DNA of 54,933 bases, from IMG/VR virus record IMGVR_UViG_3300011440_000025, positions 1-54,933 of that record. One strand, given 5' to 3'. The position numbers and the translations under genes were made by a program. The notes under the pieces were generated by a model. The model was not told the DNA's origin. It did not search any database and worked only from the letters and a program-made list of their open reading frames with translations. The stretch is from a virus (Duplodnaviria; Caudoviricetes). How positions within the stretch are numbered: position 1 is the first letter of the stretch; every line of letters begins with the position of its first letter. Of this stretch, positions 1 through 51,227 are shown piece after piece.

Positions 1-10
1 TACAACTAAT

Positions 11-1342: not shown

Positions 1343-1343
1343 T

Positions 1344-1532
1344 ATGGCACGACCTAAAATAAAAAACAGCAAGAATAGTTTTAATAACTATGGACTAAAG
1401 CCTGAAGAAGATAACGAGCTTCAAGCTTTGTTAGAAGAATGCGATCTGAGTGCGGGCCAAGTGGTTCGCGCTCTTTTAAGACAGTGGATAAAAGAAGGTG
1501 GAAGAGGTGTACTTAAATACTCAACAAAATGA
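1344..1532 (+). CDS. Small ribbon-helix-helix-like DNA-binding protein
   Basis: 62 aa; basic N-terminus, then a strand-helix-helix pattern (YGLKPEEDNELQALLEECDLSAGQVVRALLRQW). Confidence 0.55.
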   Translation: MARPKIKNSKNSFNNYGLKPEEDNELQALLEECDLSAGQVVRALLRQWIKEGGRGVLKYSTK

Positions 1533-1738
1533 ACGAACAAGAAATTTTCTTTTTCTCTATGGTTTCCCATAAGCAAGCAAAGGATGATCCAGAGAGATAC
1601 TGCAAACTAAGAATCGAAGCTACAGACTTAGGGGCAGTATCAGCCGTATTCGAAAAGATATTCAGAGCGGATAGGGCAGGGGTTATAACTAAAGCTATTC
1701 GTAAGGCTATACTAAAAGCTGAGCTAAAGGATAACTAA
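1529..1738 (+). CDS. Hypothetical protein
   Basis: ATGA overlap with the upstream gene; 69 aa. Confidence 0.65.
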   Translation: MNEQEIFFFSMVSHKQAKDDPERYCKLRIEATDLGAVSAVFEKIFRADRAGVITKAIRKAILKAELKDN

Positions 1739-1743
1739 AGTTG

Positions 1744-1796
1744 AAAACTAAGAGTTTAGTTATAAGGATCTATTTTAAAACTAAAACCTTAGTTTT
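1744..1796. promoter_or_regulatory. Two copies of the palindrome AAAACTAA-N4-TTAGTTTT (operator-like)
   Basis: 1744-1763 aaaactaa-gagt-ttagttat and 1777-1796 aaaactaa-aacc-ttagtttt; same motif at 54222 and 54472. Confidence 0.7.
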
Positions 1797-1949
1797 CGAG
1801 CCTAAAACCTAGTACGAAAACCTTCGTAATAGAGCCTTTTCGAATACCCCTCTGGCGCTGTCTAAATAGGCCCCCAGACTTTACCAGAAGCCCGTGGTTA
1901 CACGCTAGGCTAAAACCCGTAATACCCTACCTTTAAAAAAAAGTAAGCT

Positions 1950-2159
1950 ATGAAGTTAAAAGACTTAAAACCGTCAAAGGTCGTTCGTCCGTTCGTTACT
2001 ACTCCAAAACTCCTTATATATATAGAGCAAGAAGCTAAAAAGATTCTAGCCTATATAGTAGAAGTAAATGGAACGAAGAAACGATTTGAAATCAAGAACC
2101 ATAATTATTTGTTAACCTTTAAAAAATTAGTATCTTATGTCGAAAAAAATCTCAAGTGA
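1950..2159 (+). CDS. Hypothetical protein
   Basis: First ORF after the intergenic control region; 69 aa. Confidence 0.6.
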   Translation: MKLKDLKPSKVVRPFVTTPKLLIYIEQEAKKILAYIVEVNGTKKRFEIKNHNYLLTFKKLVSYVEKNLK

Positions 2160-2388
2160 AAACGCATACTCCAAACATTGGAAAGACATGCCAGAGTTTA
2201 AACAAAACGATCTTAGACCTATTAAACAAATTCTTGTATCTTTTGCTACACCTGAAAGCATTGTAAAATTTAGTAAGCTGGTTGGACAGAAGGTTCTTAA
2301 GGATACCCAAAGTATATGGTATCCTCAAGTACCTAATGTACCGCTTATGAATAAAAGATGGACAGACTCTAAACCTAAGAAGAAATGA
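2137..2388 (+). CDS. Small protein of the type found beside phage TET-associated glycosyltransferase/ParB clusters
   Basis: W-x-x-MPEF-x-Q...IxVxF...FxKLVGQ...SIWYP pattern, recalled from such clusters. Confidence 0.6.
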   Translation: MSKKISSENAYSKHWKDMPEFKQNDLRPIKQILVSFATPESIVKFSKLVGQKVLKDTQSIWYPQVPNVPLMNKRWTDSKPKKK

Positions 2389-2984
2389 TAACCCACGACC
2401 ACAAGTTAATTTTTATACACATACCCAAGTGTGCTGGTAGAAGTATAAGCGATGCGTTTAACCAAAGATTCGATCACTTTACAGCTCGCCACTACGCTAC
2501 GGAATATCCTGAATGCTTTCACGAATATACTAAGTTTACAGTTGTCCGTAATCCATACGATAGGTTAGTGTCGCTCTTCCATTATATTAAGGAGCACCGC
2601 AGGCATTCCACAGAATCCATCTACTGCGGTATGGATTTTAAAACGTGGTTAATCAGAAATATGATAGCCTATACTAGAGAGGCAAAGAAGGACTCTCCAG
2701 AATTGGAACGCGGAACAGACGGACAAGTAGGTAGTCCATTTCAATTCGCATCCCAGCAAAGTTTTTTAGGTACTTGGGAGAAACAATTTCTGGTATTCTT
2801 TTTTGAAGATATGAAAGCTGTAGCGACCTTCCTAGAAGAAAAAGGGAATGCTAAGCTAGGGCATTTAAATTCTTCTAAGCATCATTTTTGGATGGAGTAT
2901 TACGACTTGGAACTATGTGAGTTATGTCGATACTTCCCACCTATAGTAACTGATTGCAAAGCGTTTAACTATAAGCTACTATGA
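2385..2984 (+). CDS. Sulfotransferase (Sulfotransfer_2-like, PAPS-dependent)
   Basis: 5'-PSB motif FIHIPKCAGRS and 3'-PB motif FTVVRNPYDRLVS. Confidence 0.88.
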   Translation: MITHDHKLIFIHIPKCAGRSISDAFNQRFDHFTARHYATEYPECFHEYTKFTVVRNPYDRLVSLFHYIKEHRRHSTESIYCGMDFKTWLIRNMIAYTREAKKDSPELERGTDGQVGSPFQFASQQSFLGTWEKQFLVFFFEDMKAVATFLEEKGNAKLGHLNSSKHHFWMEYYDLELCELCRYFPPIVTDCKAFNYKLL

Positions 2985-4090
2985 AGTATGATTATCTTAT
3001 AGTAGGAGCTGGAGTATTTGGATGTACTTTCGCACATGAGGTGACTAAGCATGGTTATAAGTGCCTAGTCATAGACCAGCGTAATCACTTAGGTGGTAAT
3101 ACTTACTGCCTAGACATTAATGGTATACCTATCCATAACTATGGAGCACACATCTTCCATACGAATAGTGAGCTCTTATGGAAGTATGTTAATCAGTTTA
3201 CTCGTTTCGAGCCGTTTGTTAACTCTCCATTAGCTATGCGAAACAATAGGTTATACAATCTACCATTTAATATGAATACGTTCTATCAGATATGGGGTAT
3301 CGCTGATCCGGAAAAAGCAAGGCAACAAATAATAAGTGAACTAACGGATTATATAAACCCCATTAACTTAGAACAGCAATCCACTAACTTGGTAGGCACT
3401 ACACTCTATAATTTAATTATCAAAGGCTATACCCAAAAACAATGGGGCAGACCGTGTACGGAATTACCTCCATTTATTATCAAGCGCTTACCTATACGCT
3501 ATACCTTTAATAATAATTACTTTAACGACTACTATCAGGGTATACCAGAACAAGGATACAATCCAATGATTCAAGGGATGCTAAAGGATATTCCATACGA
3601 ACTTGGGACACCCTATACTAAAGGACATGATTATAATTGTAAAAAGATAGTATACACAGGATCGCTGGATGAATACTTCGAATACTGTTACGGTGTACTT
3701 CAATACCGCTCTCTAGAATTTGAGCACCATGAGACGTATACAAAGAACCATCAAGGAACTCCAGTTATAAATTATGGAGATGTGCAGATCCCTTATACCA
3801 GGTCCATTGAACATAAACACTTCTATAGGCAATTCACTAATAATAGTAGTGTAGTTTCAAAGGAGTTTCCGATAGAATGGTCGCTGGGCAAAGAAAGGTA
3901 TTACCCAATCAACGATACCAATAACCAAGTATTGTTTTTAAAGTATACGCAACTTGCGGATAAAGAAACGAACGTAATTTTTGGAGGACGTCTTGCCGAG
4001 TATCACTACTACGATATGCATCAAGTTATTGCCTCAGCTCTCAAAGCAGCCCATAAAGAAACCAACACACGCTATGAAATGCAATACTAA
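2981..4090 (+). CDS. glf: UDP-galactopyranose mutase
   Basis: FAD motif YLIVGAGVFG, YGAHIFHTN, GYTQKQWG, RYYPIN, GRLAEYHYYDMHQVI. Confidence 0.95.
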   Translation: MKYDYLIVGAGVFGCTFAHEVTKHGYKCLVIDQRNHLGGNTYCLDINGIPIHNYGAHIFHTNSELLWKYVNQFTRFEPFVNSPLAMRNNRLYNLPFNMNTFYQIWGIADPEKARQQIISELTDYINPINLEQQSTNLVGTTLYNLIIKGYTQKQWGRPCTELPPFIIKRLPIRYTFNNNYFNDYYQGIPEQGYNPMIQGMLKDIPYELGTPYTKGHDYNCKKIVYTGSLDEYFEYCYGVLQYRSLEFEHHETYTKNHQGTPVINYGDVQIPYTRSIEHKHFYRQFTNNSSVVSKEFPIEWSLGKERYYPINDTNNQVLFLKYTQLADKETNVIFGGRLAEYHYYDMHQVIASALKAAHKETNTRYEMQY

Positions 4091-4298
4091 ATTTGCTGGA
4101 TGTTTTAACCAGGAATGTTTAAAAGATTTTACATGTAAAGATTCTCTAAGAGATGATTTATATAGCTACTCCAACGATGAAATTATATTCAAGGCCTTGC
4201 TAGGTAACAAGAATCCATACGTTGAAGAATTGGCTAAACGATTTAAATCATTTACTAACAGTACTAAGGAAAACAATAAAAAGAAAAAGAAAGTATGA
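4074..4298 (+). CDS. Hypothetical Cys-containing protein
   Basis: Start moved to ATG 4074 (MKCNTK...); fills the gap between glf and the next gene. Confidence 0.5.
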   Translation: MKCNTKFAGCFNQECLKDFTCKDSLRDDLYSYSNDEIIFKALLGNKNPYVEELAKRFKSFTNSTKENNKKKKKV

Positions 4299-5116
4299 AT
4301 CCAAGCTATCCAGTATATATAATAAGTAAGGGCAGGTGGGAGAGTCGGTACACCGCCAAGACATTAGACTATATGAAAGTGCCCTATAGAATTGTTGTTG
4401 AACCGCACGAGTATCTTAAATATGCCGCAGTTATCAATTCCAAAAAGATATTGGTACTACCTTTTAAAAATGTAGGGTGTCCTATACCAGCTAGAAATTG
4501 GGTATGGGAACATAGCATTGCTGAGGGCCATAAGCGCCATTGGATACTCGATGATAACATAAGCTACTTCTTTAGGCTCAACCATAACATGAAGATACCC
4601 GTGGACTCTGGTACCATATTTAAAATATGTGAGGAGTTTACAGATCGCTACACGAACATAGGTCTTAGCGGTATGCAGTATTTTATGTTTGCTAGTCGTA
4701 AGGCAAAACAAAATCCGTTTATATTAAATACACGAATCTATTCTTGTATATTAGTAGACAACTCATTACCTTTAAGATGGAGAGGTACATATAATGCAGA
4801 CACTGATCTAAGCATACGAGTATTACAGTCAGGATTATGTACCGTATTATTCCAAGCCTTCCTATGTGGTAAGATGCAAACGATGACCGTAAAGGGTGGT
4901 ATGACGGACTCCCATCTTAATAATGGTAGATTGAAAATGGCAGAGTCACTTAAGAGGCAGCACCCAAAGCTAGTTACTATAAAAGATAAGTTTGGCCATC
5001 CCCAACATGTAGTTGACTATAGCGCATTTAAGGATAACAAACTTATTTTTAAAAAAGGAATTAATATAAAAGACGGAATAAACAATTATGGACTTGAACT
5101 AATTAAACTACACTAA
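4295..5116 (+). CDS. TET-associated (TAGT/GREB1-like) GT-A glycosyltransferase
   Basis: YPVYIISKGR, IVVEPHEY, ARNWVWEHS, HWILDDNI, RIYSCIL, WRGTYNADTDLS, KGGMT. Confidence 0.85.
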   Translation: MNPSYPVYIISKGRWESRYTAKTLDYMKVPYRIVVEPHEYLKYAAVINSKKILVLPFKNVGCPIPARNWVWEHSIAEGHKRHWILDDNISYFFRLNHNMKIPVDSGTIFKICEEFTDRYTNIGLSGMQYFMFASRKAKQNPFILNTRIYSCILVDNSLPLRWRGTYNADTDLSIRVLQSGLCTVLFQAFLCGKMQTMTVKGGMTDSHLNNGRLKMAESLKRQHPKLVTIKDKFGHPQHVVDYSAFKDNKLIFKKGINIKDGINNYGLELIKLH

Positions 5117-5120
5117 ACCC

Positions 5121-6833
5121 ATGGGAAATTTTATAGCAGTAGACATCGAAACAACCGGACTCCATCCGATACCTGGTAAGTCAAAGATATTTTGCATTAC
5201 TCGTAACGATGGAAAAAGAATGACGCTCCACGAAAACATAAAAGATATACAGCACGAGTTGGAAGATCCATCTATTATTAAAATAATTCATAATGCAAAG
5301 TTTGATTGCCTCTGGTTAAAACGAATGCATGGAATAACAGTAACTAATATATGGGACACGAGAGTAATGGAACAAGTTATACTGGGAGAGAATTTACCAC
5401 GGCGTGAAAAAAACGTCGAAAAATTAAAGGAGCTCAGTTCGTCTCTTCTATGGACACTCCAGCGGTATGGTTTACCAGCACTCGAAAATAAAGAAATGGG
5501 AAAGTCATTTACTGAACGTCCTATAGATAAACCACTTACACAAGCTGAACGAGATTATGCTATAAACGACGTGCGCCATCTTCCTCAATTAATGGTAGCT
5601 CAGATAAGTAGAATACAAAAGCTTGGACTACAGAAGGTAGCTGCCCTTGAAAATAAGTTAGTTGAAGTACTTGTCGATATGGAGGACAGGGGCATTGGCT
5701 TCGATAAGAGTATTTGGTTGGGTATAGCGAGACAATATACACAGGAATCAAAAGACTTATTAAAACGACTACCATCTGATGTTGCTAACTGGGACAGCCC
5801 ATCGCAAGTAAAAAAATACTTTGCTAAGCAAGGGGTGTTAATAGAATCCTATAACGAGCTTGAAGAGTTGGGTCCACGATACAATAATCCTATACTAAAT
5901 AAGTTTATTGAATACCGCGCATACTATAAAAACTTAACAACTTATGGAAGTAGTTGGTTAGTAGATGATGAGAAAGGTAGTACATTAGATCCTGATGGGA
6001 GAGTCAGAACACGTTATGAGCAAGTAATGAATACAGGTAGGTTATCTTCAGCCCATCCCAACCTACAACAAATTCCCGCAAACACTTTACACCGCACCGC
6101 TTTTATACCTAAGAAAGGACACGCGTTTATTATCGCAGATTTTAGTAACCAAGAAATCGGTATAGCAGCTGCCGCATCCAAAGAGAAGATATGGATAGAT
6201 ACTTTATTAAGGAGAGATGATATACATAGTCTTACAGCAAGTATAATATATCCAGAGAGATGGGCAAAGGGAAAAGAAAAAAAGTGCGCCTTTCCTAAAA
6301 AATGTAAATGCCCACATCACTTAGCTCAACGACAAGATGGAAAAGTATTTAATTTTAAAATACTGTATGGCTCTGGACCTAAATCTATTGCCGAGTATTT
6401 ACAGATACCATACTATGACGGGGTGGCTGTACTAAGTAAATTCAAAAGAGTCGTTCCATCCCTCACAAATTGGTTAAACACTAACGTAAAGAATAGCATT
6501 AAAGAAAGGATATCATATAGTGCAGATAAGTATAGACGTAGGCGGACGTTGAGGGATCCAGAAGATTGGATGGTCAGAACAGTAGCCATGAATAACCCTA
6601 TTCAAAGTTGTGGCGCTAACATGATCAAGCTAGCGATGGTATCACTTCCTAAAGGAGCACCTATAGTATTATCAGAACATGACTCGCTTGTTCTAGAGGT
6701 ACCCAAGAAAGATGTGAAGAAGTGGTCGAAGATACTCAAAACGACTATGGAAAAGGCAGCTGACCATTGCACAGATATAGTTGGTTTAATAGAGGCAAAA
6801 CCAAGAGAGGCATATAATTTACTTAAAGACTAA
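5121..6833 (+). CDS. polA: Family A DNA polymerase with 3'-5' exonuclease domain
   Basis: Exo I DIETTG, Exo II HNAKFD, Exo III YAIND; TGRLSSAHPNLQQIP; motif A ADFSNQE, motif B RQDGKVFNFKILYG, motif C EHDSL. Confidence 0.95.
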   Translation: MGNFIAVDIETTGLHPIPGKSKIFCITRNDGKRMTLHENIKDIQHELEDPSIIKIIHNAKFDCLWLKRMHGITVTNIWDTRVMEQVILGENLPRREKNVEKLKELSSSLLWTLQRYGLPALENKEMGKSFTERPIDKPLTQAERDYAINDVRHLPQLMVAQISRIQKLGLQKVAALENKLVEVLVDMEDRGIGFDKSIWLGIARQYTQESKDLLKRLPSDVANWDSPSQVKKYFAKQGVLIESYNELEELGPRYNNPILNKFIEYRAYYKNLTTYGSSWLVDDEKGSTLDPDGRVRTRYEQVMNTGRLSSAHPNLQQIPANTLHRTAFIPKKGHAFIIADFSNQEIGIAAAASKEKIWIDTLLRRDDIHSLTASIIYPERWAKGKEKKCAFPKKCKCPHHLAQRQDGKVFNFKILYGSGPKSIAEYLQIPYYDGVAVLSKFKRVVPSLTNWLNTNVKNSIKERISYSADKYRRRRTLRDPEDWMVRTVAMNNPIQSCGANMIKLAMVSLPKGAPIVLSEHDSLVLEVPKKDVKKWSKILKTTMEKAADHCTDIVGLIEAKPREAYNLLKD

Positions 6834-6835
6834 AT

Positions 6836-7621
6836 ATGAAATATCCAATTTACATTCCATCTAAAGGAAGGGCAGATAACCAAAAAACAGTTAAGCTGCT
6901 CGAAGAAAACAATATCAAGAACTACAAGGTGGTAGTTGAAGAAAACGAGTATAGTAAGTACAACGAGTTTATTAGTGTTCGGAACCTTCTGAGGTTGCCC
7001 AGCTCCAACTATGGAACAGTATCCGTTGCTCGCAATTATGCTATAGAGCATTCAAAAAAGATGGGGTACACAAAGCATTGGCAACTGGATGATGACATAG
7101 GAAAAATATACCTACATGATAAAGGTAAGGTAATCCATGAAGATATAAACAAGGTGCTTTCGGATATAGAAAACACCCTAGAGAAAAAACAATTAAGTCC
7201 TATATTACTTGCTGGACTTACCACATCTGCATCCTTCTTAGCGAGTAAAACAAAGGACTATACGTTGAACACATCCCTAACTTCGTGTGTTCTTATAACT
7301 AATACACCGTTGAGGTTCCGTATAAAGATGCTAGAAGATACAGACTATCAACTACGCATACTTAAACAAGGCGGTTCCATATTAAAATTTAATAACTACG
7401 CATTTGCATACACGACTCAGCTAAAACAAATTGGAGGCTACACTAGCATATATAACGATACGGCTAAACGCATGGAAGGTTTGAAAGAATTTTTAGATCT
7501 GTATCCTGAAGTGTCTCCGGAAATTATTAAAAAGCCAAACGGTATGCTTAAGATTAAAAACATACGATTCGTATGGGCAAAATATAAAAAGAATAATCAA
7601 ATTTTACTTAAACATCTATAA
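6836..7621 (+). CDS. Second TET-associated (TAGT/GREB1-like) glycosyltransferase
   Basis: YPIYIPSKGR, ARNYAIEHS, HWQLDDDI, EDTDY, GG motif; paralogous to 4295-5116. Confidence 0.8.
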   Translation: MKYPIYIPSKGRADNQKTVKLLEENNIKNYKVVVEENEYSKYNEFISVRNLLRLPSSNYGTVSVARNYAIEHSKKMGYTKHWQLDDDIGKIYLHDKGKVIHEDINKVLSDIENTLEKKQLSPILLAGLTTSASFLASKTKDYTLNTSLTSCVLITNTPLRFRIKMLEDTDYQLRILKQGGSILKFNNYAFAYTTQLKQIGGYTSIYNDTAKRMEGLKEFLDLYPEVSPEIIKKPNGMLKIKNIRFVWAKYKKNNQILLKHL

Positions 7622-7623
7622 AC

Positions 7624-8253
7624 ATGAAAAAATCAAACATTATTTGGGACTGCATTAAAGTAAGTGTACCTAAGATTAAACCAACGCCTAACAATTTTAA
7701 ACTCTTCGATGAGGAAGGGGCTGCGGTATTCCGGAACTCACTTGACTCATTTGGTAAGGCAGGTTCAGTTATTATTAATAAGGACTACACATTGATTGAT
7801 GGCAATACTAGGTGGAAGGATGCAGTAGAAAACAAAGAGAAATTTCTTTGGGCTTCTATTCCATCACGACTGCTTACGGCCAAAGAGTTCAACGTCATGT
7901 CGGCCATATTCGATAGGGCACGTGCTGGACAAGTAGATACCCTACGCATAAGTGAAGAGTGGTCAAATCAGAAGGGTAATACGAAGTCTTTTTTCAAAGC
8001 CTGGGGTATACCAATGCCTGAAGAAGTATTAAAGAAACTTGAGGATATGGAGAATGGAGTAATCACCCCGGACAAAAAGAAGATAACCGAAAAAGAAATA
8101 CATGATGTGGACGTGATGCCTATTACATTAATTTTTACACCGGCCGAACACAAGAAGTATATGGAGATAGCAGAATCATTATACAAACGTTTTAAGGTTG
8201 ATAATGTCACCGATCTTACAATGAAAGCGATGATCTATGTCAAAAAAAATTAG
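7624..8253 (+). CDS. ParB/Srx N-terminal domain protein
   Basis: IKPTPNN...SLDSFG...VIINKDYTLIDGNTRW resembles the ParB-N GxxR motif. Confidence 0.75.
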   Translation: MKKSNIIWDCIKVSVPKIKPTPNNFKLFDEEGAAVFRNSLDSFGKAGSVIINKDYTLIDGNTRWKDAVENKEKFLWASIPSRLLTAKEFNVMSAIFDRARAGQVDTLRISEEWSNQKGNTKSFFKAWGIPMPEEVLKKLEDMENGVITPDKKKITEKEIHDVDVMPITLIFTPAEHKKYMEIAESLYKRFKVDNVTDLTMKAMIYVKKN

Positions 8254-8302
8254 TTTTTTAATTCGTCCGTGCTTTATTATATTTATATCCCCTTTAGACT
8301 AA

Positions 8303-8806
8303 ATGATAAAGTTTCATATATTTTTCGCTCTGGGTAAATCGGCTTCACTTACGTATGCATACGATGTTACTTGGCGAGCAATCGTCAACTCTATACTCAA
8401 GGACCCACCTAGAGAAAAACATAAGTGCCCAGCTCTAGTCCTTAATAGGTTCAATACTATCAACGGCTCAATCCGCAACCAGTACATACTCCTCAAACAA
8501 ACTACCGGGTATTATGGTATAGACATTGATGACGTTGATAGTATAAACTTTGTTAAGCGACAACTATTCGAGTTCGTTCCCGAATTAAAAATTGTTTGGA
8601 CCAGCCACAGTGGTCGTGGTATCAAAGCAATAGGATACAATCCAATTTTAAAAAACTTAAACCCTGAAGAGTACAAAGCAAGATACAAGTTAGTATGTAA
8701 TAGTATTAAACAACAATGTGGTATTCGAATACATTTCGACCTAGCACAAGGCAGGTGCCACCAACCAGTCTTTCTCAATAACGATCCAAATGCATATACA
8801 CGATGA
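8303..8806 (+). CDS. BT4734/VirE-N-like primase domain protein
   Basis: GYYGIDIDD and WTSHSGRGIK motifs; directly upstream of a VapE-like ATPase. Confidence 0.7.
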   Translation: MIKFHIFFALGKSASLTYAYDVTWRAIVNSILKDPPREKHKCPALVLNRFNTINGSIRNQYILLKQTTGYYGIDIDDVDSINFVKRQLFEFVPELKIVWTSHSGRGIKAIGYNPILKNLNPEEYKARYKLVCNSIKQQCGIRIHFDLAQGRCHQPVFLNNDPNAYTR

Positions 8807-10383
8807 AGCTACTTAAGAAAGAATTATTCAAAAAACATAGTAAACACCACCCTGACCTAAAACTTATTACGGTTAGGTGTATACAAGAATACGATGATGA
8901 CACACCACAGGCCGTGGTCGATAGGATAATAAAAGAAGAGTGGATGCACCCCGACTCTGGGGACAATGACCGCAAGAAATTAGTGACGGATATTAAGGCA
9001 CTGTGGTCCAAGGCCGCACTAGAAATAGGAGAGCAGGGTACAGCATACTCGAAACAGCGTAGGCTGAGTGGTCCGGAACAAATGGAACAGGCGCTTGCCT
9101 ATCTTAAGGAGCACGTTGTATACGACGTGTTCAAGAAAGCACACATTGATTTATCCACGAATAAGGAGACAAGCGCTATAGACCTATGTTATAAGTATAA
9201 TAAGCTTGGAGACAATAACTCCTATATTCCGGTGTCGATGTTTGATCGTTTTCTAGAGAGCGTTGAGATACCCAGAATTAATCCAGTTAAGATATGGGCA
9301 GAAGCCTTACCTAAGTGGGATAAGAAAGATCATATCAAAACACTTTGCTCATACGTTCCCGCAGAGGACCCAGAGTTGCTTGAACTATTTCTTAAAGCTT
9401 GGCTCATACGAGCATATGTACAGGCGGTAAATCCAGAAGATAAACCAGCCGTATCCGTTGTGAATCGTTTCTTCTTAATGTTATATGGTACCCAAGAAGG
9501 TAGTGGTAAAACTGGTTTCCTTGAATGGCTTTCTCCAAAACCAGAATGGGTAAGTATATCGGGCGTGGATCTGAATTCAAAGGATAGTAAGTCAGACATG
9601 GGCCAGTATATGATTATAGTCGATGATGAGATGAGAGGGCTACAGCATAAGGAGCTGGAACACTATAAGTCCTTGATTAGCATACCTAAAATCGACATAA
9701 GATTACCGTATGCAAGACGTCCCGTTACTATAGATAGAACAGCTAGCTTATGTGGTAGTACTAATAGACAGGACCTATTCTCTGTAGGGGAGCAGAATAC
9801 TCGTTTCCTTTGTGTAACACTTAAGCCAGGAATGTTCGATTGGAAAGTGTATATTAAAAAGATAGACAAAGAAATGCTCTGGTCACAAGTTAAATATCTA
9901 TGTACTACTAATTGGCTTGAAGATAACGATACTAATATACGAGAGGCACGAAACGAAATAAATGTTAGCTTTGAAAAGGAATCCATGGAGCATCATGCAG
10001 TCCGGTCTCATTTTAAAACGTCTAAAGAGGAAGGTGGTAAACAAGCTGTACTTACGTCAAGCGATGCTATAATTCTATTACGATCTTTAGAACAGTATAG
10101 AACTATTAAACTATATGACGTAGGTATAGGAGTTGCCCTTAAAAAGGTATTTGGAGAAAAAGTAAATGGGTACAAAGTAAGGGAGATTGTATACTCAAAC
10201 TCAGATGGAAAACTAACTGCCAGCCCACCCCCATACGATACTACAAAGCATAGAACAAAGGGGTATAAAGTAGTTTTCGATCCACTCGGAGTAAGTGAAA
10301 ACGCTGAGACTGGGACAGTAGAAAGTACCAGTTTAGTCCTAAAAGTTACTAAGGTCAAAAAAGCTAAAAAACGAAAATCATGA
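8803..10383 (+). CDS. VapE/virulence-associated-E-like P-loop ATPase (primase-associated helicase)
   Basis: NPVK, GTQEGSGKT Walker A, IVDDE Walker B, RLPYAR, RTASLCGSTN, NTRF. Confidence 0.85.
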   Translation: MKLLKKELFKKHSKHHPDLKLITVRCIQEYDDDTPQAVVDRIIKEEWMHPDSGDNDRKKLVTDIKALWSKAALEIGEQGTAYSKQRRLSGPEQMEQALAYLKEHVVYDVFKKAHIDLSTNKETSAIDLCYKYNKLGDNNSYIPVSMFDRFLESVEIPRINPVKIWAEALPKWDKKDHIKTLCSYVPAEDPELLELFLKAWLIRAYVQAVNPEDKPAVSVVNRFFLMLYGTQEGSGKTGFLEWLSPKPEWVSISGVDLNSKDSKSDMGQYMIIVDDEMRGLQHKELEHYKSLISIPKIDIRLPYARRPVTIDRTASLCGSTNRQDLFSVGEQNTRFLCVTLKPGMFDWKVYIKKIDKEMLWSQVKYLCTTNWLEDNDTNIREARNEINVSFEKESMEHHAVRSHFKTSKEEGGKQAVLTSSDAIILLRSLEQYRTIKLYDVGIGVALKKVFGEKVNGYKVREIVYSNSDGKLTASPPPYDTTKHRTKGYKVVFDPLGVSENAETGTVESTSLVLKVTKVKKAKKRKS

Positions 10384-10553
10384 AAAATATAGCTTTTGCC
10401 GTCTCAAACGTCTCACAGAAACTTCGTTTCCAGCCTGTTTTATTCGCAGATATACCTGAGACACTGAGACACTATATATATATAATACTAATACTAGGTA
10501 ATACTATAAGTGGTGTATATAAGTGTTTGACTTTTTACCTCTTTACTGTCTCA
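10305..10553. repeat. Cluster of TGAGAC/GTCTCA hexamers around an AT-rich tract (origin-like)
   Basis: TGAGAC at 10305, 10457, 10465; GTCTCA at 10401, 10410, 10548; (TA)n tract from about 10473. Confidence 0.65.
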
Positions 10554-10667
10554 CCCCGATTTTCGACGTTGCGACGACATCGGCGCTGGTGGGGTTTGGG
10601 GAGGGGAAAGCAAAAAAGATACAAAAAAATGCAGGTAGGAAATGATTAAATAAAATTTTAACTTTAC

Positions 10668-10955
10668 ATGAAGAAACAAGAGGTCAGAGGTGAACCTCTT
10701 CCATATAGGAAGATACACCGTCAACGCAAAAAGATTACAGAGATACGTGGAATCTACAAAGTATGGTTACGAGCAAAGAGATACATATTGCGTTTGGAAG
10801 CATCTAACCAGATACGTATGTATGTAACAAGTGATGGCTTACTTGGAGCAAAGGTTGAAGCAAAGGAATTTAGAGAGGGCTTTGACGATCATGAGTTGAA
10901 GCGGAAGTATTGGCAAAATAAGTTAGGGGTAAAATTAATTGTAGAACGCGTATGA
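10668..10955 (+). CDS. Hypothetical basic protein
   Basis: 95 aa; ATGA overlap with the next gene. Confidence 0.65.
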   Translation: MKKQEVRGEPLPYRKIHRQRKKITEIRGIYKVWLRAKRYILRLEASNQIRMYVTSDGLLGAKVEAKEFREGFDDHELKRKYWQNKLGVKLIVERV

Positions 10956-13094: not shown

Positions 13095-13096
13095 TT

Positions 13097-45648: not shown

Positions 45649-46055
45649 CACTGCTGCCGACACTTATTGAATCTTGGCTAGATCGTAAAGGAGAAAAGAA
45701 GCAAGGAAAAATAAAGGACACTATCTGGTTAACAGTTGGTAGTGTCCTTTATATTATGGTTACTTGGAAAATTTTTAATCAGAATCCATTTATCATACTT
45801 GCTTATATCCTTATGTGGCGAGTAACCTTGTTTGATTACCTGACGAATTTTATGTTGAAGAAGTTTAGCGATGGGCATAAGCAAATTAATATTTGGAAGT
45901 ATACTGGTACGACTACATTTTGGTGGGACCAGCTAACGAGTAAGATAGATTGGAGATGGAGATTGATTTTTAGAATAGTGATCCTTGCCGCAGGTGTGAG
46001 TCATCTGATACTTCCTTTCCCATACGATATATATGGAATACATATAAACCATTAA
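45630..46055 (+). CDS. Membrane protein
   Basis: About three TM segments; FDY..N...W.Y.G. Confidence 0.6.
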   Translation: MVYKILTLLPTLIESWLDRKGEKKQGKIKDTIWLTVGSVLYIMVTWKIFNQNPFIILAYILMWRVTLFDYLTNFMLKKFSDGHKQINIWKYTGTTTFWWDQLTSKIDWRWRLIFRIVILAAGVSHLILPFPYDIYGIHINH

Positions 46056-46527
46056 TGATCCGCATGGTCTTTGCTCCTTTACAAAACATCTTATCAAATG
46101 TTTTCTTTCCATCAATAACTTTCTCTTGAAACTTATTCTTTTCCCAATAAGATTTTTTAAAGAGCATGTAGAATCCTGCAACCATAGGAATATCCGCACA
46201 TAGTTGTTTACTACATAAATGTTTAGCGTGAACAATCTGGTCCCATATATCCCCACTCCTAAAAAGATCAGGGGCAGTTGTTTCCCATCTCTCTTCTATC
46301 TGCCATAGGTATCCTGACCGATTAGTATATGCACCAAAGATATCCGTATCTGGATAATTTATAATAGCATTTTCAATAACACGATTACTATCTTTGCAAA
46401 GTATCATTGCGTCCTGATCTAAAAGTTGTATCCATTCATATGGACTCGCAGCGCAGTGATCATTAAGCACACGACCAAATTGATTTGGATCTGTACAGAA
46501 AGGTTGTATTCTAAAAATGTCTATCAT
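45970..46527 (-). CDS. GT-A-like glycosyltransferase
   Basis: WIQLLDQDAM (DxD), AGFYMLFKK..W, GLYVFH.YR; start reassigned. Confidence 0.65.
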   Translation of the reverse strand: MIDIFRIQPFCTDPNQFGRVLNDHCAASPYEWIQLLDQDAMILCKDSNRVIENAIINYPDTDIFGAYTNRSGYLWQIEERWETTAPDLFRSGDIWDQIVHAKHLCSKQLCADIPMVAGFYMLFKKSYWEKNKFQEKVIDGKKTFDKMFCKGAKTMRIINGLYVFHIYRMGKEVSDDSHLRQGSLF

Positions 46528-46528
46528 A

Positions 46529-46723
46529 TTATTTTTTCTTTCTTTTAGTTTTAGATTTAAGTTTGGGTTCACCGTCTGGCTTTGCCCAATTCATCCTAGC
46601 CAATTCTTCTATTGGTTGATTAAACATATAAAGAACATCTAACTTAGCAAGTTCCTCTATGGATTGTGGGGACAATGATGCAATCCATTTGTCTCGTTTA
46701 ATTTTAAATTCTTCTGGTGTCAT
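46529..46723 (-). CDS. Hypothetical protein
   Basis: Start MTPEEFK with ATGA overlap. Confidence 0.55.
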   Translation of the reverse strand: MTPEEFKIKRDKWIASLSPQSIEELAKLDVLYMFNQPIEELARMNWAKPDGEPKLKSKTKRKKK

Positions 46724-46822: not shown

Positions 46823-47842
46823 TTATAGTTTTTTAATTTCGTGTTTATACGCCTTGAATGCCGACTCTCTATGGATACCGACCACATATGTTTCCTCTTC
46901 ACAACGATCAGACTCTGGCCATATCTCAAATACCTTAAGGACAATTCCTTTCGAGTTAATTACGATGTCCCCTTTATTAATTTCTCGAATAGGTTCCGGG
47001 TTGCTATTACTATCCAAGAACCCTATCTCATTAGCAGGTGTCATACAGTAGTTTAAGAATACGTATGGGTGCATAAGATTTATGGACCTGATTAACATAG
47101 GTTGATAAGCGTTCATAAGTAAGCCTAGTATGGATTGATCATGACGGTGCCCCATCTTCTTATCTTCTTCAGCTTGCCAGAAACTAAAGTCACCCTCTAT
47201 CTTACTATTTGCTGGACCCATAGCACAACACTTGTCAATACTATTCCAATATAACCACTCGTTAACAAGTAACTGGCTCTTAGCATTCTTTCTTATTATA
47301 AACATACCTGAGGCGCACTGAAATGATCTTCGATACTTTTCCATATGCATAGTATTGATGCAAAGTTCAGTAGTAAAGTTTTCGTGGGTATGGATACCAA
47401 GAGCATGAGTTGACTTAGTACGGTTATCCCAATTAACAAATGGTGCTATGATACCTCCACAATTATCCAGTAGCGTATCTAGGTTATGGATATCTGGTCG
47501 CTTCAAGTGATTACGGTCACCTCCTATAAAATCCATAGTCCACATTTCCGGAGAGCAGTCTTGATATATAAGTATATCTCCTTCATCGATCTTCTTAAGT
47601 GCTTCAGAGATTGCGAACGGTTTATATGCTCTGCCGTTTCTTGCTGGATCAACATGGTCAAGGAGAGTTCTATTTTGTTTATAGAAGTCCGTGTCTATTA
47701 TATCATCCCAGCAAGGCATATAAAATTCGTCTATAAGCTGGAACGGTCGTAAGAGTTCTATCATATTCAATTGTGTCTTACGATAGATTCCACCTTTTCT
47801 ACCCATACGATCATCTGATACTGTTACTAATATTGTCTTCAT
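46823..47842 (-). CDS. Putative glycosyltransferase (HRHDQS type)
   Basis: YKPFAI..AL, GDILIYQD, W...W, HRHDQSIL. Confidence 0.65.
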   Translation of the reverse strand: MKTILVTVSDDRMGRKGGIYRKTQLNMIELLRPFQLIDEFYMPCWDDIIDTDFYKQNRTLLDHVDPARNGRAYKPFAISEALKKIDEGDILIYQDCSPEMWTMDFIGGDRNHLKRPDIHNLDTLLDNCGGIIAPFVNWDNRTKSTHALGIHTHENFTTELCINTMHMEKYRRSFQCASGMFIIRKNAKSQLLVNEWLYWNSIDKCCAMGPANSKIEGDFSFWQAEEDKKMGHRHDQSILGLLMNAYQPMLIRSINLMHPYVFLNYCMTPANEIGFLDSNSNPEPIREINKGDIVINSKGIVLKVFEIWPESDRCEEETYVVGIHRESAFKAYKHEIKKL

Positions 47843-48525
47843 ATACTTCCTTTTCTCCTCATATAATAAACTGTTTCTTGCTTAGTTTGTTTTGCCTTAT
47901 CCAGCATCGATTCTCCTGGTGCATGCTTTCTATAATAAAATAATATCTCTGGTATGGTATGAATCTTATATCCATACTTTGTTGCTCTTAACCAGAACTC
48001 CCAATCCTCATACCCTTGTCTCATTAGTTCATCGTATCCACCTAAGTTCCACCACATCTTACGAGAAAACAACGAGCAACAATTAAGACGGTTTGTTATA
48101 CGTAAGTCTTCCCATGTAGGAGATGGATGTGGCTTACTTACTCTAGTATATTGTCCAAAGGTTTCAAGATACGTTGATATAATATCACGCTCTCTATACT
48201 TATATTGTGCTACCATCTTTTCTATACAGGTAGGATGGATTTTATCATCGGCGTCCAGCGGTAACACTAAACCATCATCTTCTGGTATTGCACATATTCC
48301 GGTGTTACGAGTTGCGGCAAGTCCCCTATTACGTGGATGATGGATTATGGGTATGTCCAAATAATTCACGTACTCAGAAATAAACTTACCTTCAAGTAAT
48401 TCTGTAGAGCAGTCATCTACTATAATAATTTCTATGTTCTTATAGGTTTGTGCTCTTACAGAATCTATAGCTTCAGCTATATATTTGTAATGGTTATAAC
48501 AGGGTATAACTACTGTTACTTTCAT
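47839..48525 (-). CDS. GT2-family glycosyltransferase
   Basis: VVIPCYN, EIIIVDDCS, NRGLAATRN, LDADD, GGYDE...YEDWEFWLR. Confidence 0.92.
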   Translation of the reverse strand: MKVTVVIPCYNHYKYIAEAIDSVRAQTYKNIEIIIVDDCSTELLEGKFISEYVNYLDIPIIHHPRNRGLAATRNTGICAIPEDDGLVLPLDADDKIHPTCIEKMVAQYKYRERDIISTYLETFGQYTRVSKPHPSPTWEDLRITNRLNCCSLFSRKMWWNLGGYDELMRQGYEDWEFWLRATKYGYKIHTIPEILFYYRKHAPGESMLDKAKQTKQETVYYMRRKGSI

Positions 48526-48686
48526 ACATAGATAAATGTTAAGGTTACTTGATTATCATACTGCCCTTGACTCTGAGTTGTAAAAAGTATTTGGATACTA
48601 TTTAAACTTTCAAACCATTCGGTAACATCCCTTTCTATTTGATATGCACTACCTGCAAATGTTTTTACTCTTATTGTTTTTTCCAT
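48522..48686 (-). CDS. 54 aa hypothetical protein (not in the ORF track)
   Basis: MEKTIRVKTFAGSAYQIERDVTEWF...; fills the gap and has an ATGA overlap with the GT2 gene. Confidence 0.55.
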   Translation of the reverse strand: MEKTIRVKTFAGSAYQIERDVTEWFESLNSIQILFTTQSQGQYDNQVTLTFIYV

Positions 48687-50278
48687 GGCCATGTATTTAT
48701 TTCTTGTCTAAGTTCGTCTTTTGTAAGTGCTTTGATTCTACGTAGCTCTTGATCATTTGCCTTAAAGTGTCTATGGGTATTAAGACTATTAGGACCAGTC
48801 CAGTGATTAAGATGATACATATTATTCCCAAGAACTCTTTCAATGCGATAACCCAATTTTTCAAACCGATACATACGTTCAACATCTTCTGCACCATAGC
48901 TAATAAAGTTTTCATTTTCCATTCCTCCATCTATAAACGATTCTTTGTTAAAGCCTACTGCTCCACCAAGACTTACTACGTCACTAGTATTCATTCCATT
49001 AAATCTTGTATCGCCAACTAGTCCAACGTCCCCGTCATAGTCTCTTATCTTTTCAAACCATGTGTTACGTGGCATACGAGCGAACGCCCACTTATAAGGA
49101 TAGACCATATCCGCACCACTACGTAACATCTCTACTGCCTGTAGTATTTGTAATGGAGCAATAAAAACATCTACGTCCCAATTAAAGATATATCTGCGAC
49201 TTGTATTACGAGCCATATTGTTTAATGCTTTCGTCCTATGCATTACTGGAGTGTACATAAGATCATAGCGATGGCAATAGAAGTGTCCCTTATCTTGTAG
49301 GTAAGTCAGCTTTGGTTCATGGTCATACATCTCAGTTACATACACCTCAGCATCTTCAAAGTACCTGTGGAAAAATCGTAGGAGTATTTTAAGATTTTCT
49401 TCACGGTCTTGGTGGTCGTAGTATACTGGAATTTGAAAACTAACATCGATTAATTTTATTTTTTTGTCCTGTCTATCGGTATCCCGTTGGTGATTAAACT
49501 TATAGTAGTTGGGTGGATAATAATCCTTGATATCATTTTTACGCAACAACTGTCCATTGAAATGATGGACAGGTCTTATAATTGTTTTATGTAGTGCGGT
49601 TGAAAGATATGAACCCCACCAAGAGAAAGTAGAATTACCAATAATAAAATCATCACACTGAGACATAAGGCAGATATCTTCAATATCAGAATTGTTTTCT
49701 GAGAAGGTAACATTAGGCAGACAACCGAAATGGTTACGGCAATAAGGTATGTCGTCTGAGAAGATAATAATGTCCCGTTCTTTCCAGTCATCAAAAAATT
49801 CAATAAGCGCCCTGTAATAGTAACCAATAACTGGAAGCAAATGATAGTTAGGATTCCCCACGTAATCCCCACGGCGTATGGATAACGCAATTGGATTGAG
49901 CTTAGTATCAAACTTAATTGTTTGCTTAACACGCTCCACGAACTCTTTCTTAAAGGTAAGCGCACTACGTACTTCTTTTTCATAGTCTTGCCAATATTTA
50001 TATGATTGCAAATATCCGTATACATCTACTTGATCGTTATCACGAATCGCTGGCCAATCAGGTACGTAACTAAAAGTTGTTTCCTTTACTTCACGTCCCC
50101 ATAGATCATCTTCGTTACCTACTGGAAACTCTCCTTCAAAATACTCTGCACATTTCCATGCAGGTAACTTAAGATGGGCACCGAATTTTTTACTGATTCC
50201 TATCATACTTGCATATTGAAACAACTGGTTGCCTAGCCTACCATTGTTTCCAAATGATGTCATTGTTATTTGTTTCAT
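48671..50278 (-). CDS. Fusion of GT11 alpha-1,2-fucosyltransferase-like and GT2/GT7-C galactosyltransferase-like domains
   Basis: GRLGNQLFQYA, IRRGDY, FSDD, NSTFSWWG; then DREENL, WDVD, GGA, GMENENF.SYGAED.ER. Confidence 0.85.
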   Translation of the reverse strand: MKQITMTSFGNNGRLGNQLFQYASMIGISKKFGAHLKLPAWKCAEYFEGEFPVGNEDDLWGREVKETTFSYVPDWPAIRDNDQVDVYGYLQSYKYWQDYEKEVRSALTFKKEFVERVKQTIKFDTKLNPIALSIRRGDYVGNPNYHLLPVIGYYYRALIEFFDDWKERDIIIFSDDIPYCRNHFGCLPNVTFSENNSDIEDICLMSQCDDFIIGNSTFSWWGSYLSTALHKTIIRPVHHFNGQLLRKNDIKDYYPPNYYKFNHQRDTDRQDKKIKLIDVSFQIPVYYDHQDREENLKILLRFFHRYFEDAEVYVTEMYDHEPKLTYLQDKGHFYCHRYDLMYTPVMHRTKALNNMARNTSRRYIFNWDVDVFIAPLQILQAVEMLRSGADMVYPYKWAFARMPRNTWFEKIRDYDGDVGLVGDTRFNGMNTSDVVSLGGAVGFNKESFIDGGMENENFISYGAEDVERMYRFEKLGYRIERVLGNNMYHLNHWTGPNSLNTHRHFKANDQELRRIKALTKDELRQEINTWPWKKQ

Positions 50279-50610
50279 GTTATAGAAAACTTTTTTAAGT
50301 TCTGTGCTTTAGCAAATGTTACTTCATCTAACTTACTAAGGTATACTGGACCTAGTATTAGTATAGGATTATTTTCATCATCCCATTGGCAAGTAAATCC
50401 TGCTTTACATTCTTTAAATGCTTGTAACGTAATCGTTTCTTTATCTCCTATTATTGCGCTATCAACAATATTATTTTTTGTTGGGTATCCATCGTGTAGA
50501 CATACAGTTGTTATTTTAAGTGTAGCTAAAATAGAAGTGTCTTTATTAAGACGTTCTATAAAGTCATCATGACCCCTTGGTTTATCTCCGTAGTTTAACA
50601 TGGTTCGCAA
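50275..50610 (-). CDS. Hypothetical protein
   Basis: 111 aa; in operon. Confidence 0.6.
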   Translation of the reverse strand: MRTMLNYGDKPRGHDDFIERLNKDTSILATLKITTVCLHDGYPTKNNIVDSAIIGDKETITLQAFKECKAGFTCQWDDENNPILILGPVYLSKLDEVTFAKAQNLKKFSIT

Positions 50611-51227
50611 ACTAAAATTTTATCCTTATACAATATTCCATCTTCAAGCTGTTCATTCCAAAGACTAAACTTATAATCGAATGGGAAAGCATAATTAATA
50701 AAGCCAGCAAACTTAAGAGCGCTGTTTATATCCTGGTCATCAATAATAATAAGATGGCGATGGATTGTCTTATAGGTAATATCACTAATCACTTTTAATT
50801 CTCTCTCCAATATATTGTCCTGAGAAAATTCCATGTTACCTTGCATAAGTTCAGCGTGACCACCAGTATTGGGTCCGGCAGGATGTGCGTCCAGAAATAT
50901 TACGGAGTTTTTATTTGCTCGCTCCAGCATTAATGGTAACATATCGTATGACTTACCTAAATGAATTTCGGCCATAGTATATTTTAATCGCATAGCCACT
51001 ACGAATGGTTCATAAATATCCACACTATAAATATGTTTATACCCAGCGAGTAGTGCTCTCCTTATAGACTCACCCATAGCAGTTCCAGTTTCTACATAGG
51101 TATCACTGAACTCTAAGTAGTCTAAGATATTAAATAGTTTTCCTGTTTTAGTTATCATATCTTCTTTAGTTGGTTCTGGTAAATTTTCTTCAAGATTTCC
51201 TGTTACTCTTGTCTTTGGTATTTTCAT
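50595..51227 (-). CDS. Class I SAM-dependent methyltransferase-like protein
   Basis: YVETGT..G, GKS...L, IFLDAH, IIIDD. Confidence 0.7.
   Translation of the reverse strand: MKIPKTRVTGNLEENLPEPTKEDMITKTGKLFNILDYLEFSDTYVETGTAMGESIRRALLAGYKHIYSVDIYEPFVVAMRLKYTMAEIHLGKSYDMLPLMLERANKNSVIFLDAHPAGPNTGGHAELMQGNMEFSQDNILERELKVISDITYKTIHRHLIIIDDQDINSALKFAGFINYAFPFDYKFSLWNEQLEDGILYKDKILVCEPC

Follow-up and report, generated by a model that had tools for sequence, protein, structure and literature searches.

A TAGT glycosyltransferase cassette with a ParB-fold protein in the replication operon of an uncultured tailed phage: a candidate for DNA glycosylation without a recognizable acceptor-making enzyme

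Glycosylation of phage DNA is a main escape route from restriction and CRISPR, and a source of enzymes for DNA-labelling chemistry. In T-even phages, 5-hydroxymethylcytosine (5hmC) is made via a homolog of the thymidylate synthase ThyA, and the first glucose is added by an alpha- or beta-glucosyltransferase; the glucosyltransferase of kinetoplastid base J is a relative of the TET/JBP-associated glycosyltransferase (TAGT) family, which reportedly was defined by Iyer et al. in 2013. To our knowledge, every characterized TAGT-type reaction uses a hydroxyl on a modified pyrimidine or its sugar, and the current model needs a first enzyme, either a ThyA homolog or a TET/JBP dioxygenase, that creates this sugar-accepting group. 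Here we analyze the 54,933 bp genome of a tailed phage (IMG/VR record IMGVR_UViG_3300011440_000025; the whole record is hereafter the window), which encodes in its replication operon two TAGTs, a small partner protein that we denote s83, a protein with the ParB-N fold, a UDP-galactopyranose mutase (Glf) and a sulfotransferase. The reading that we favor, at a probability of roughly 0.45, is ParB- and s83-assisted glycosylation of the phage DNA on an acceptor that comes from no recognizable TET/JBP or thymidylate synthase homolog.

Among the described systems, the T2/T6 beta-glucosyl-HMC-alpha-glucosyltransferase is a TAGT that, according to the accessible text of two reports, puts a second glucose on glucosyl-5hmC (PMC13216743, PMC13390438). 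The window TAGTs share with it the PF20691 domain, the acidic motifs of the GT-A glycosyltransferase fold, the PHROG 842 name and a gene position near replication genes, but they are accompanied by a ParB-N protein and by s83 as a separate partner, in a genome that has no counterpart of the ThyA homolog or of the alpha- and beta-glucosyltransferases of the T-even phages. In the available part of the former report, 288 of 753 phage genomes carry 'solitary' TAGTs, that is, without an alpha- or beta-glucosyltransferase, with the function given as undefined (PMC13216743). Another parallel is provided by the phage 5mYOX dioxygenases, among whose gene neighbors glycosyltransferases and ParBs are the commonest and for which a ParB homolog without a DNA-binding domain activates the cognate enzyme, on double-stranded DNA only (O'Toole et al. 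2026, PMC13229309, as far as the text is accessible). Like these activators, the ParB-N protein of the window is short, with an N-terminal nucleotide-binding fold, a helical C-terminus and no obvious DNA-binding domain, and is encoded beside a putative DNA-modifying enzyme; the difference is that no PF12851 5mYOX is detected in the window or in five related genomes (G001-G005), and that ParB-N is tied to a glycosyltransferase via s83. The word 'glycosyltransferase' does not occur in the text of a ParB-fold survey preprint (10.1101/2025.10.10.680097), which therefore does not seem to include the ParB-N/s83/TAGT architecture.

With regard to the sugar, a phage Glf has been proposed to supply UDP-galactofuranose for the DNA glycan of Rhizobium phage RL38JI and other Pootjesviridae (Lee et al. 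2026, PMC13326640). There, as here, Glf is encoded alongside glycosyltransferases assigned to DNA, but, in the available text, the acceptor is 5-hydroxycytosine (5hoC) produced via a ThyA homolog, the glycosyltransferases in Table 1 of that paper match non-TAGT structures, and there is no mention of a sulfotransferase such as the one encoded in the window. Phage clusters of methyltransferase, 5mYOX and glycosyltransferase genes decorate 5hmC with one to three sugars (Pyle et al., bioRxiv 10.1101/2023.12.21.572611) and resemble the window in combining several GT-A or GT-B enzymes and sugar-tailoring genes near polymerase, ParB-like and terminase genes. About 65% of the glycosyltransferase contigs in that preprint have no neighboring 5mYOX or ThyS and were deemed less likely to be DNA-modifying; in the accessible part of the preprint this judgment concerns gene neighborhoods only, whereas here complete genomes lack both enzymes and the ParB-N fusions argue for DNA. 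The preprint text mentions neither a furanose nor a sulfo group, and our literature search found no published description of a sulfated DNA glycan. The suggestion of an earlier note on this DNA that the modification is undescribed agrees with that search as regards the sulfate, but no longer applies to the galactofuranose, since such a route was proposed for DNA glycans in PMC13326640; ParB-glycosyltransferase architectures or Glf pathways may already be listed in the supplements to these studies (Dataset S10 of PMC13229309, the Pyle tables and Fig. S11 of PMC13326640).

The window is 100% complete according to CheckV and consists of a plus-strand block (1-45.4 kb) that runs from replication through packaging to structural genes and a minus-strand block (46-54 kb) of recombination genes. 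Between positions 2137 and 8253, an unbroken plus-strand string encodes s83, the sulfotransferase, Glf, a 74-aa open reading frame (ORF), TAGT1, the DNA polymerase PolA, TAGT2 and the ParB-N-fold protein (Table 1). The junctions are 4-nt overlaps or 2-4 nt spacers: the s83, sulfotransferase and Glf genes overlap successively by 4 nt, the string runs on into TAGT1, and the 74-aa ORF, for which a longer form starting at TTG produced no family match, spans the sole apparent gap. The earlier note had described a tightly packed operon of seven genes; all seven are located on the plus strand where it placed them, and the identities it proposed are borne out by Pfam, NCBIfam, PHROG and Foldseek matches, although it overlooked the 74-aa ORF and a cluster of glycosyltransferase genes on the minus strand (45970-51227). 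There is no terminator-like site on the plus strand of positions 1-12500, since all 7 such sites lie on the minus strand, a count that is not above that in shuffled sequence; the combined promoter and terminator scan performed no better than on shuffles. A DNA search with 2137-8253 against cultured phages produced no match, single-protein locus scans with TAGT2 and with the ParB-like protein produced no loci, and the scan with PolA, which is 41-56% identical to its counterparts in relatives L006-L011, produced two distant loci only.

The two TAGTs are diverged from each other (33% identity; BLASTP E 1e-31), and a hidden Markov model (HMM) derived from alignment A2 recognizes both (E 2.2e-154 for TAGT1 and 7.8e-41 for TAGT2). 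TAGT1 belongs to a viral subfamily that is both very widespread and strongly conserved: it has at least 7895 homologs, the best 120 of which are 61-69% identical to it, with its own cluster at 100%. The LDD and NxDTD motifs of TAGT1 (D86, D87, D169, T170 and D171) occupy invariant columns of A2, and the WQLDDD and EDxD blocks are retained in TAGT2, in the copy from G001 and in the TAGT of Nonlabens phage P12024L; we take these acidic, DxD-like motifs to be the catalytic motifs of a GT-A enzyme. TAGT2 shares 50% identity with its G001 counterpart and about 30% with the P12024L enzyme, which is encoded next to a TET gene. By sequence, neither the TAGT profile nor the sulfotransferase profile matched a solved structure. 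The s83 protein has no Pfam family, and its Atlas neighbors are all unnamed viral clusters; several longer TAGTs, those of Vibrio phages 1.076.O, 1.124.O and Kuja and of Aeromonas phages Aeh1 and 65, carry an s83 homolog as an N-terminal extension.

To characterize the genomic context of the TAGTs, we surveyed the best 80 of 590 confirmed IMG/VR stretches of the TAGT1 type (54-65% identity) and the best 80 of 336 of the TAGT2 type (29-37%, except for the G001 copy at 50%), with the architectures read on the TAGT strand, from ORFs no shorter than 50 aa, and some loci cut by contig ends. An s83 domain immediately precedes the TAGT or forms a fusion with it in 77 of the 80 TAGT1-type and 61 of the 80 TAGT2-type loci (HMM search), typically with a 10-nt overlap between the s83 ORF and the TAGT start, in full agreement with the label of a small TAGT-associated protein that s83 had been given before. 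The TAGT1-type loci include 32 with separate s83 and TAGT genes, 29 with a ParB-N-s83 fusion followed by TAGT, 11 with an s83-TAGT fusion, a single ParB-N-s83-TAGT triple fusion, 4 with other arrangements of s83 and 3 without s83. Among the TAGT2-type loci, 38 have a ParB-N-s83 fusion upstream, 47 have a ParB-N of any kind and 19 lack s83. ParB-N thus adjoins or is fused to s83 in 30/80 and 47/80 loci, respectively (for one of the ParB-N-s83 fusions, the Pfam ParB_N match has E 9.8e-13), and the link between TAGT and ParB proposed from the window holds across the survey.

The TAGT1-type genes are found among genes for DNA handling, the recurrent neighbors being a large terminase (TerL) family in 27 loci (in 19 of these, at a distance of 300-600 bp downstream of the TAGT), a second TerL family in 6, a TerS-like helix-turn-helix (HTH) protein and a portal protein in 10 each, an NAD sugar epimerase in 8, a clamp loader in 7, and a sliding clamp and an N6/N4 DNA methylase in 6 each. 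No oxygenase family recurs among the neighbors in these 80 loci. When eight diverse complete or near-complete phage genomes (GC 32-55%) were compared, s83 and TAGT were the only families common to all of them, indicating that the cassette moves alone. The gene-neighborhood survey that the earlier note had called for accordingly confirms the association of ParB and s83 with TAGT; over all 239 loci sampled, it does not support one between TAGT and Glf or the sulfotransferase (see below). In Vibrio phage 1.076.O (MG592452.1; L001, 6534-7703), a 389-aa s83-TAGT fusion is encoded between the portal and head-morphogenesis genes. This phage has lambdoid features (NinX and a DnaB-like helicase) and no TET or ThyA homolog, and its record has no annotated polymerase; it could offer a practical way to identify the TAGT acceptor.

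Comparison with close relatives separates the cassette from the core genome. The closest relative with the module, G001 (93% complete, searched except for its last 480 bases), has the gene order PolA-TAGT2-s83-TAGT1-ParB. The genes for PolA, the ParB-like protein, a PIF1 helicase, ERCC4, Gp157 and a PDDEXK nuclease belong to the core that the window and G001 share with the TAGT-less relatives G002 and G003; what the window and G001 have in addition is limited to s83, TAGT1, TAGT2 and two ORFs, one of 62 aa and one antisense to TAGT1.

The ParB-like protein of the window has no Pfam match and no tblastn match in cultured phages, and a search of the Protein Data Bank (PDB) sequences with its alignment yielded chance-level matches only. 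Its fold emerges from an AlphaFold2 model built with 24 homologs (mean confidence score, pLDDT, of 71): the best Foldseek match is ParB-N of pNOB8 (5k5d, E 5.6e-6), 17 matches have E <= 0.001, and ParB-N, Noc, PadC and ParB-CDP structures were retrieved at E 5.6e-6 to 1e-4. In addition, the window protein is recognized, with E 4.7e-14, by a ParB-N profile that was started from a ParB-N/s83 fusion next to a TAGT. In the DGNTR box (alignment A1), G60 and N61 are invariant, and D59 and R63 are present in at least 90% of the rows. The C-terminus is modeled as two helices (173-208, pLDDT >90), and no HTH family was detected in the protein by Pfam scan or in the model; the possibility that the C-terminal half is an s83 domain was considered and rejected (hhalign probability 0.2).

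The sulfotransferase belongs to a family of compact proteins of about 200 aa, with 277 homologs detected and PF03567 present in all but one among the matches listed; in the window protein, the PF03567 alignment covers residues 2-89 only. Across 22 homologs, the PKCAGRS and RNPYDRLVS stretches show little or no variation, and we take them to be the 5'-phosphosulfate-binding (5'-PSB) and 3'-phosphate-binding (3'-PB) motifs for 3'-phosphoadenosine 5'-phosphosulfate (PAPS). Judging from these features, the enzyme is probably PAPS-dependent and sugar-directed, the pointers to a sugar substrate being the PHROG name and the recurrent pairing with Glf only; no solved relative was found by sequence search. 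In G001 and L007, s83 directly abuts TAGT1, so the insertion of the sulfotransferase and Glf genes in the window lies inside the cassette, exactly between two genes that elsewhere are translationally coupled neighbors.

We propose that the replication operon houses a widespread, self-contained mobile module of s83, TAGT and a ParB-N-fold protein, here with two diverged TAGTs, and that a second mobile pair, Glf and the compact sulfotransferase, was inserted between s83 and TAGT1. After replication, the TAGTs would move sugars from UDP-sugars to the phage's own DNA, with s83 docking on the TAGT and the ParB-N protein giving access to duplex DNA, by analogy with the ParB-dependent phage thymine dioxygenases. 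Less certain, and about half as likely, are the further steps in which Glf would supply UDP-galactofuranose as the donor for TAGT1, the sulfotransferase would O-sulfate the attached sugar, and the minus-strand glycosyltransferases would extend the glycan. DNA seems to us the probable substrate of the TAGTs, given that the characterized phage members of the family act on DNA, that the fold which activates a 5mYOX on duplex DNA, as described in the accessible text of PMC13229309, is repeatedly fused to s83, that the TAGT neighborhoods are DNA-handling, and that s83-TAGT units are also found in ThyA-bearing phages. Should the DNA be glycosylated, it is about as likely as not that the TAGT product is also what Glf and the sulfotransferase serve; galactofuranose on the phage DNA is doubtful and sulfate more doubtful still, and protection from host nucleases is the presumed purpose. 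In a bolder version, the s83-TAGT(-ParB-N) cassette would be self-sufficient, placing a sugar directly on a canonical base or another nucleophile present on all DNA, with a galactofuranose-containing, O-sulfated glycan as the product in the window. Glycosylation without a pre-installed 5-hydroxy(methyl) group would explain the solo hopping of the cassette between unrelated phages, and the sulfated product in the window would be the first such modification of a nucleic acid, but we regard this version as a long shot.

Several observations weigh against the DNA glycosylation that we favor, starting with the circumstance that the phage is uncultured and the system is known here from its genes alone. 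Searches for TET/JBP (PF12851) and thymidylate synthase (PF00303) find nothing in the complete window genome; as a positive control, PF12851 recovers the Nonlabens phage P12024L gene (E 2.8e-29), and tblastn with that TET protein against the window gives a best E of 3.5. Neither family is present in any of the five relatives, including the 93%-complete G001. On survey contigs of at least 20 kb (32 and 37 records), the TAGT1-type records contain neither TET (0/32; one sub-threshold match with an internal stop) nor thymidylate synthase (0/32) above the cut-off, 9 of the 32 being at least 90% complete; the TAGT2-type records contain TET in 1/37 (P12024L itself) and thymidylate synthase in 2/37, with neither in 34/37; among the 18 records with a completeness of 90% or more, 17 lack both above the cut-off. 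Nor does any hydroxylase travel with the s83-TAGT cassette across the eight genomes compared. The hydroxymethyl-pyrimidines on which the earlier note had the TAGTs act thus have no visible source in this genome, in G001 or in most of the sampled TAGT records. Among cultured phages with s83-TAGT units, Vibrio phages 1.076.O and 1.124.O have neither the TET nor the ThyA family; Kuja, henriette, Aeh1 and 65 do have ThyA-family genes, so DNA glycosylation is the expected role of the units there. The ParB-like gene is likewise less specific than had been assumed: it directly follows PolA in four loci without TAGT as well as in relatives with TAGT, and it adjoins PolA in relatives that lack both s83 and TAGT (L008-L011, L014-L018). 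This persistence suggests a replication-linked role of the family that is independent of glycosylation, and the window gene may serve replication instead. As a whole, the DNA hypermodification interpretation gains from the TAGT/ParB context and is weakened in its hydroxymethyl-pyrimidine premise and in the coupling of Glf and the sulfotransferase to it.

The missing acceptor can be accommodated by a hidden first step, in which 5-hydroxymethyluracil (5hmU), 5hmC or 5hoC would be made for the TAGTs by the host or by one of the unannotated proteins, acting as a highly divergent dioxygenase or as a different kind of hydroxylase. The characterized TAGT relatives, all of which use a hydroxyl on a modified pyrimidine or its sugar, are in line with this possibility; several window ORFs are unannotated, and phage-specific 5mYOX profiles retrieved thousands of contigs without a Pfam TET/JBP annotation, according to the part of PMC13229309 that is accessible. 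However, ParB-dependent 5mYOXs in the same text overlap the Pfam model by 94.6%, so that such an enzyme should have been detected; s83 and TAGT are the sole families common to the eight genomes; and, beyond the short list given above, the window and G001 share no gene missing from the TAGT-less relatives. Of the larger proteins of uncertain nature, o237, with a signal peptide, looks secreted, others look like membrane proteins, one is GT-A-like and one is methyltransferase-like; PDB sequence searches with o237, u339 and u210 gave chance-level matches only, Pfam scans of the remaining window ORFs detected no oxygenase, Pfam matches at E up to 10 were weak and to non-oxygenase families, and scans for HxD/E motifs were uninformative. 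We therefore consider a hidden hydroxylase unlikely, and the same applies to a scheme without any contact with DNA, in which the TAGTs and s83 would add sugar to a protein of the virion, bound to DNA or of the host, or to some other acceptor in the cell, and all the genes together would make one sulfated, protein- or envelope-linked glycan. Such a scheme dispenses with the hydroxylated base, for which there is no source in the window or most sampled TAGT genomes, and it is compatible with the movement of the cassette alone between unrelated phages and with the position of the s83-TAGT fusion of Vibrio phage 1.076.O between portal and head-morphogenesis genes in a record without an annotated polymerase. 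Also counting against DNA as the target is the animal protein GREB1, whose TAGT-related domain, in the available text, O-GlcNAcylates a protein, ER-alpha (PMC7968844), and so exemplifies a related catalytic domain that acts without a hydroxymethyl-pyrimidine. GREB1, however, works outside any phage context: it is cytoplasmic and eukaryotic, modifies a protein and lacks an s83 or ParB-N partner, whereas the characterized phage TAGTs act on DNA, as far as the text of PMC13216743 is accessible. The frequent fusion or adjacency to ParB-N, the clamp, clamp loader, DNA methylase and terminase neighbors, and the s83-TAGT units of T4-like Aeromonas phages with ThyA-family genes all argue in the same direction.

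A different split of the genes would leave the TAGTs on DNA and detach the rest: s83, TAGT and ParB-N would form one module, whereas Glf, the sulfotransferase and the minus-strand glycosyltransferases, with the possible methyltransferase, would build or remodel a non-DNA glycan, such as that of a virion protein or a polysaccharide of the host envelope. Sets of virus-encoded glycosyltransferases and methyltransferases glycosylate the capsids of chloroviruses and mycobacteriophages, which counts in favor of such a division. So does the survey: of the 79 viral sulfotransferase loci, 16 have a true Glf no more than 8 kb from the sulfotransferase gene and none has a TAGT in that range (0/79), and neither Glf nor the sulfotransferase was found in any of the 160 TAGT loci, so that Glf and the sulfotransferase make up a separate recurring phage pair. 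Furthermore, 15 of the 16 Glf loci typically combine a GT2-like gene with one for an unannotated 823-aa protein ([823 aa][246 aa]-SulfoT-SulfoT-GT2-like-Glf, a layout seen in up to 12), with a lysis amidase, a sugar kinase and a cupin isomerase-like gene nearby in 7-8 loci each, and the GT11/GT7C protein of the minus strand resembles marine cyanophage glycosyltransferases (103 records, of which 84 are Synechococcus phages). The window is the sole case among the 239 sampled loci that combines the s83-TAGT cassette with Glf and the sulfotransferase, so the coupling may be just positional. The only evidence that Glf and the sulfotransferase feed the TAGT is their placement, with 4-nt overlaps, inside the s83-TAGT1 unit; this precise, translationally coupled insertion is nevertheless at odds with two independent modules, as are the absence of a flippase, polymerase or priming transferase for surface polysaccharide from the Pfam matches of the window and the fact that the minus-strand glycosyltransferases continue the recombination-gene operon. 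On balance, two independent modules appear rather unlikely to us. The identity of Glf is secure, with an equivalog-level match and an FAD-binding Rossmann fold at the N-terminus, and what has been weakened is the further claim that it makes UDP-galactofuranose for a sugar on DNA. In L184, the closest sulfotransferase locus, Glf and the sulfotransferase are encoded back to back beside TerL and portal genes, and a cassette in which Glf and a GT2-like gene accompany between one and four compact sulfotransferases recurs at L184 and L194-L239. We also considered whether the T4-like Aeromonas phages with TAGTs carry Glf; PF03275 is found in 0/5 records, including those of Aeh1 and 65, and this idea was rejected.

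The significance of these observations lies in the finding that a very common viral glycosyltransferase family travels with s83, and often with ParB-N, yet occurs in complete genomes without either of the first enzymes that the current model needs. If DNA is the target, this would imply a new acceptor chemistry and a new role for the ParB fold, that of loading a transferase onto DNA; if it is not, the Pfam label 'TET-associated' misleads the annotation of thousands of phage genes. The window itself is a natural test case for galactofuranosylated or sulfated DNA.

Table 1. Genes of the putative glycosylation system and of the minus-strand cluster of sugar enzymes in the window
Feature	Coordinates	Strand	Evidence
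s83, small TAGT-partner protein, 83 aa	2137..2388	+	s83-family HMM E 1.7e-32; motif around W-x-x-M-P-E-F
Sulfotransfer_2 sulfotransferase, 199 aa	2385..2984	+	PF03567 E 5.1e-11, 43.6 bits (cut-off 22); phrog_3347 'galactose-3-O-sulfotransferase' E 1.6e-14
UDP-galactopyranose mutase (Glf)	2981..4090	+	PF03275 E 2.7e-69; NAD_binding_8 (PF13450) E 5.2e-20; TIGR00031 equivalog 378.5 bits (cut-off 303.75)
Putative 74-aa ATG ORF bridging Glf and TAGT1	4074..4298	+	stop overlaps TAGT1 start
TAGT1, GT-A glycosyltransferase	4295..5116	+	PF20691 E 7.3e-42, 144.1 bits (cut-off 27.5)
PolA, family A DNA polymerase with 3'-5' exonuclease	5121..6833	+	PF00476 E 2.3e-47; PF01612 E 9.7e-14
TAGT2, diverged second TAGT	6836..7621	+	PF20691 E 2.5e-31, 109.7 bits (cut-off 27.5)
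ParB-N (ParB/Srx CTPase-fold) protein, 209 aa, helical C-terminal part	7624..8253	+	phrog_620 weak, E 1.2e-6; Foldseek
Glycosyltransferase	45970..46572	-	phrog_14179 'glycosyltransferase' E 5.4e-27; no Pfam at E <= 0.01
GT-A-like protein, 339 aa (lead level)	46823..47842	-	weak PF03407 Nucleotid_trans E 0.088
Family 2 glycosyltransferase, 228 aa, soluble size	47839..48525	-	PF00535 E 3.9e-29
Two-domain protein, GT11 (alpha-1,2-fucosyltransferase family) and GT7-C-like	48671..50278	-	PF01531 E 1.9e-26; PF02709 E 9.6e-6
210-aa protein	50595..51227	-	PF13578 Methyltransf_24 E 0.25; glycine-rich VETGTAMG stretch

The minus-strand genes in Table 1 form the distal end of an operon that also encodes an SSB-like protein, PDDEXK, Gp157 and ERCC4, and contain four or five glycosyltransferase domains. 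Altogether, the genome encodes six or seven such domains, Glf, the sulfotransferase and possibly a methyltransferase. The glycosyltransferase identified by PHROG only (45970-46572) could belong to the same or to a second glycan pathway. The Atlas structure and feature neighbors of the 339-aa protein include Glyco_transf_34, GT2 and Nucleotid_trans clusters, with one row only above the naming bar, and the family 2 enzyme shows sub-threshold NCBIfam matches to polysaccharide glycosyltransferases of the TuaG and EpsE types. The 210-aa protein, which has no PHROG, NCBIfam or PDB match, is possibly an S-adenosylmethionine-dependent (sugar?) methyltransferase, as weakly suggested by its PF13578 match and its glycine-rich stretch. 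The cultured-phage relatives of the GT11/GT7C protein are almost all marine cyanophages, usually with the two domains encoded by adjacent genes; the tblastn records include, in addition to Synechococcus phages, 6 from Prochlorococcus phages, with 27-33% identity among the 15 matches listed.

The host could be a member of Bacteroidota, as weakly hinted by a BT4734-like primase domain and by the nearest cellular sulfotransferases, which come from Chitinophagaceae and Ilyomonas metagenome-assembled genomes (43-45% identity, in flanks otherwise unlike the window). At the right end of the window, some 800 bp (54100-54900), with no ORF of at least 40 aa beyond position 54118, are rich in inverted repeats (a 22-nt arm pair with 95% complementarity and 30-31-nt pairs) and in direct repeats; if the genome is circularly permuted, this segment lies between the divergent minus-strand recombination and plus-strand replication operons and is a candidate origin or early regulatory region. 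In the packaging region, the small terminase gene (11371-12048) is directly preceded by an HNH/endonuclease VII-like gene (10952-11371; phrog_3322, E 1.8e-14), an arrangement common in HNH-assisted packaging. The small and large (15772-17034) terminase genes are separated by 3.7 kb (12048-15772) containing a tRNA-Asp gene (12053-12130) and several small unannotated ORFs; two of these encode proteins of 237 aa and 109 aa, the N-termini of which are signal-peptide-like and Tat-like, respectively. An RNase_T-type exonuclease (17228-17788; PF00929, E 3.2e-9) is encoded between the large terminase and portal genes.

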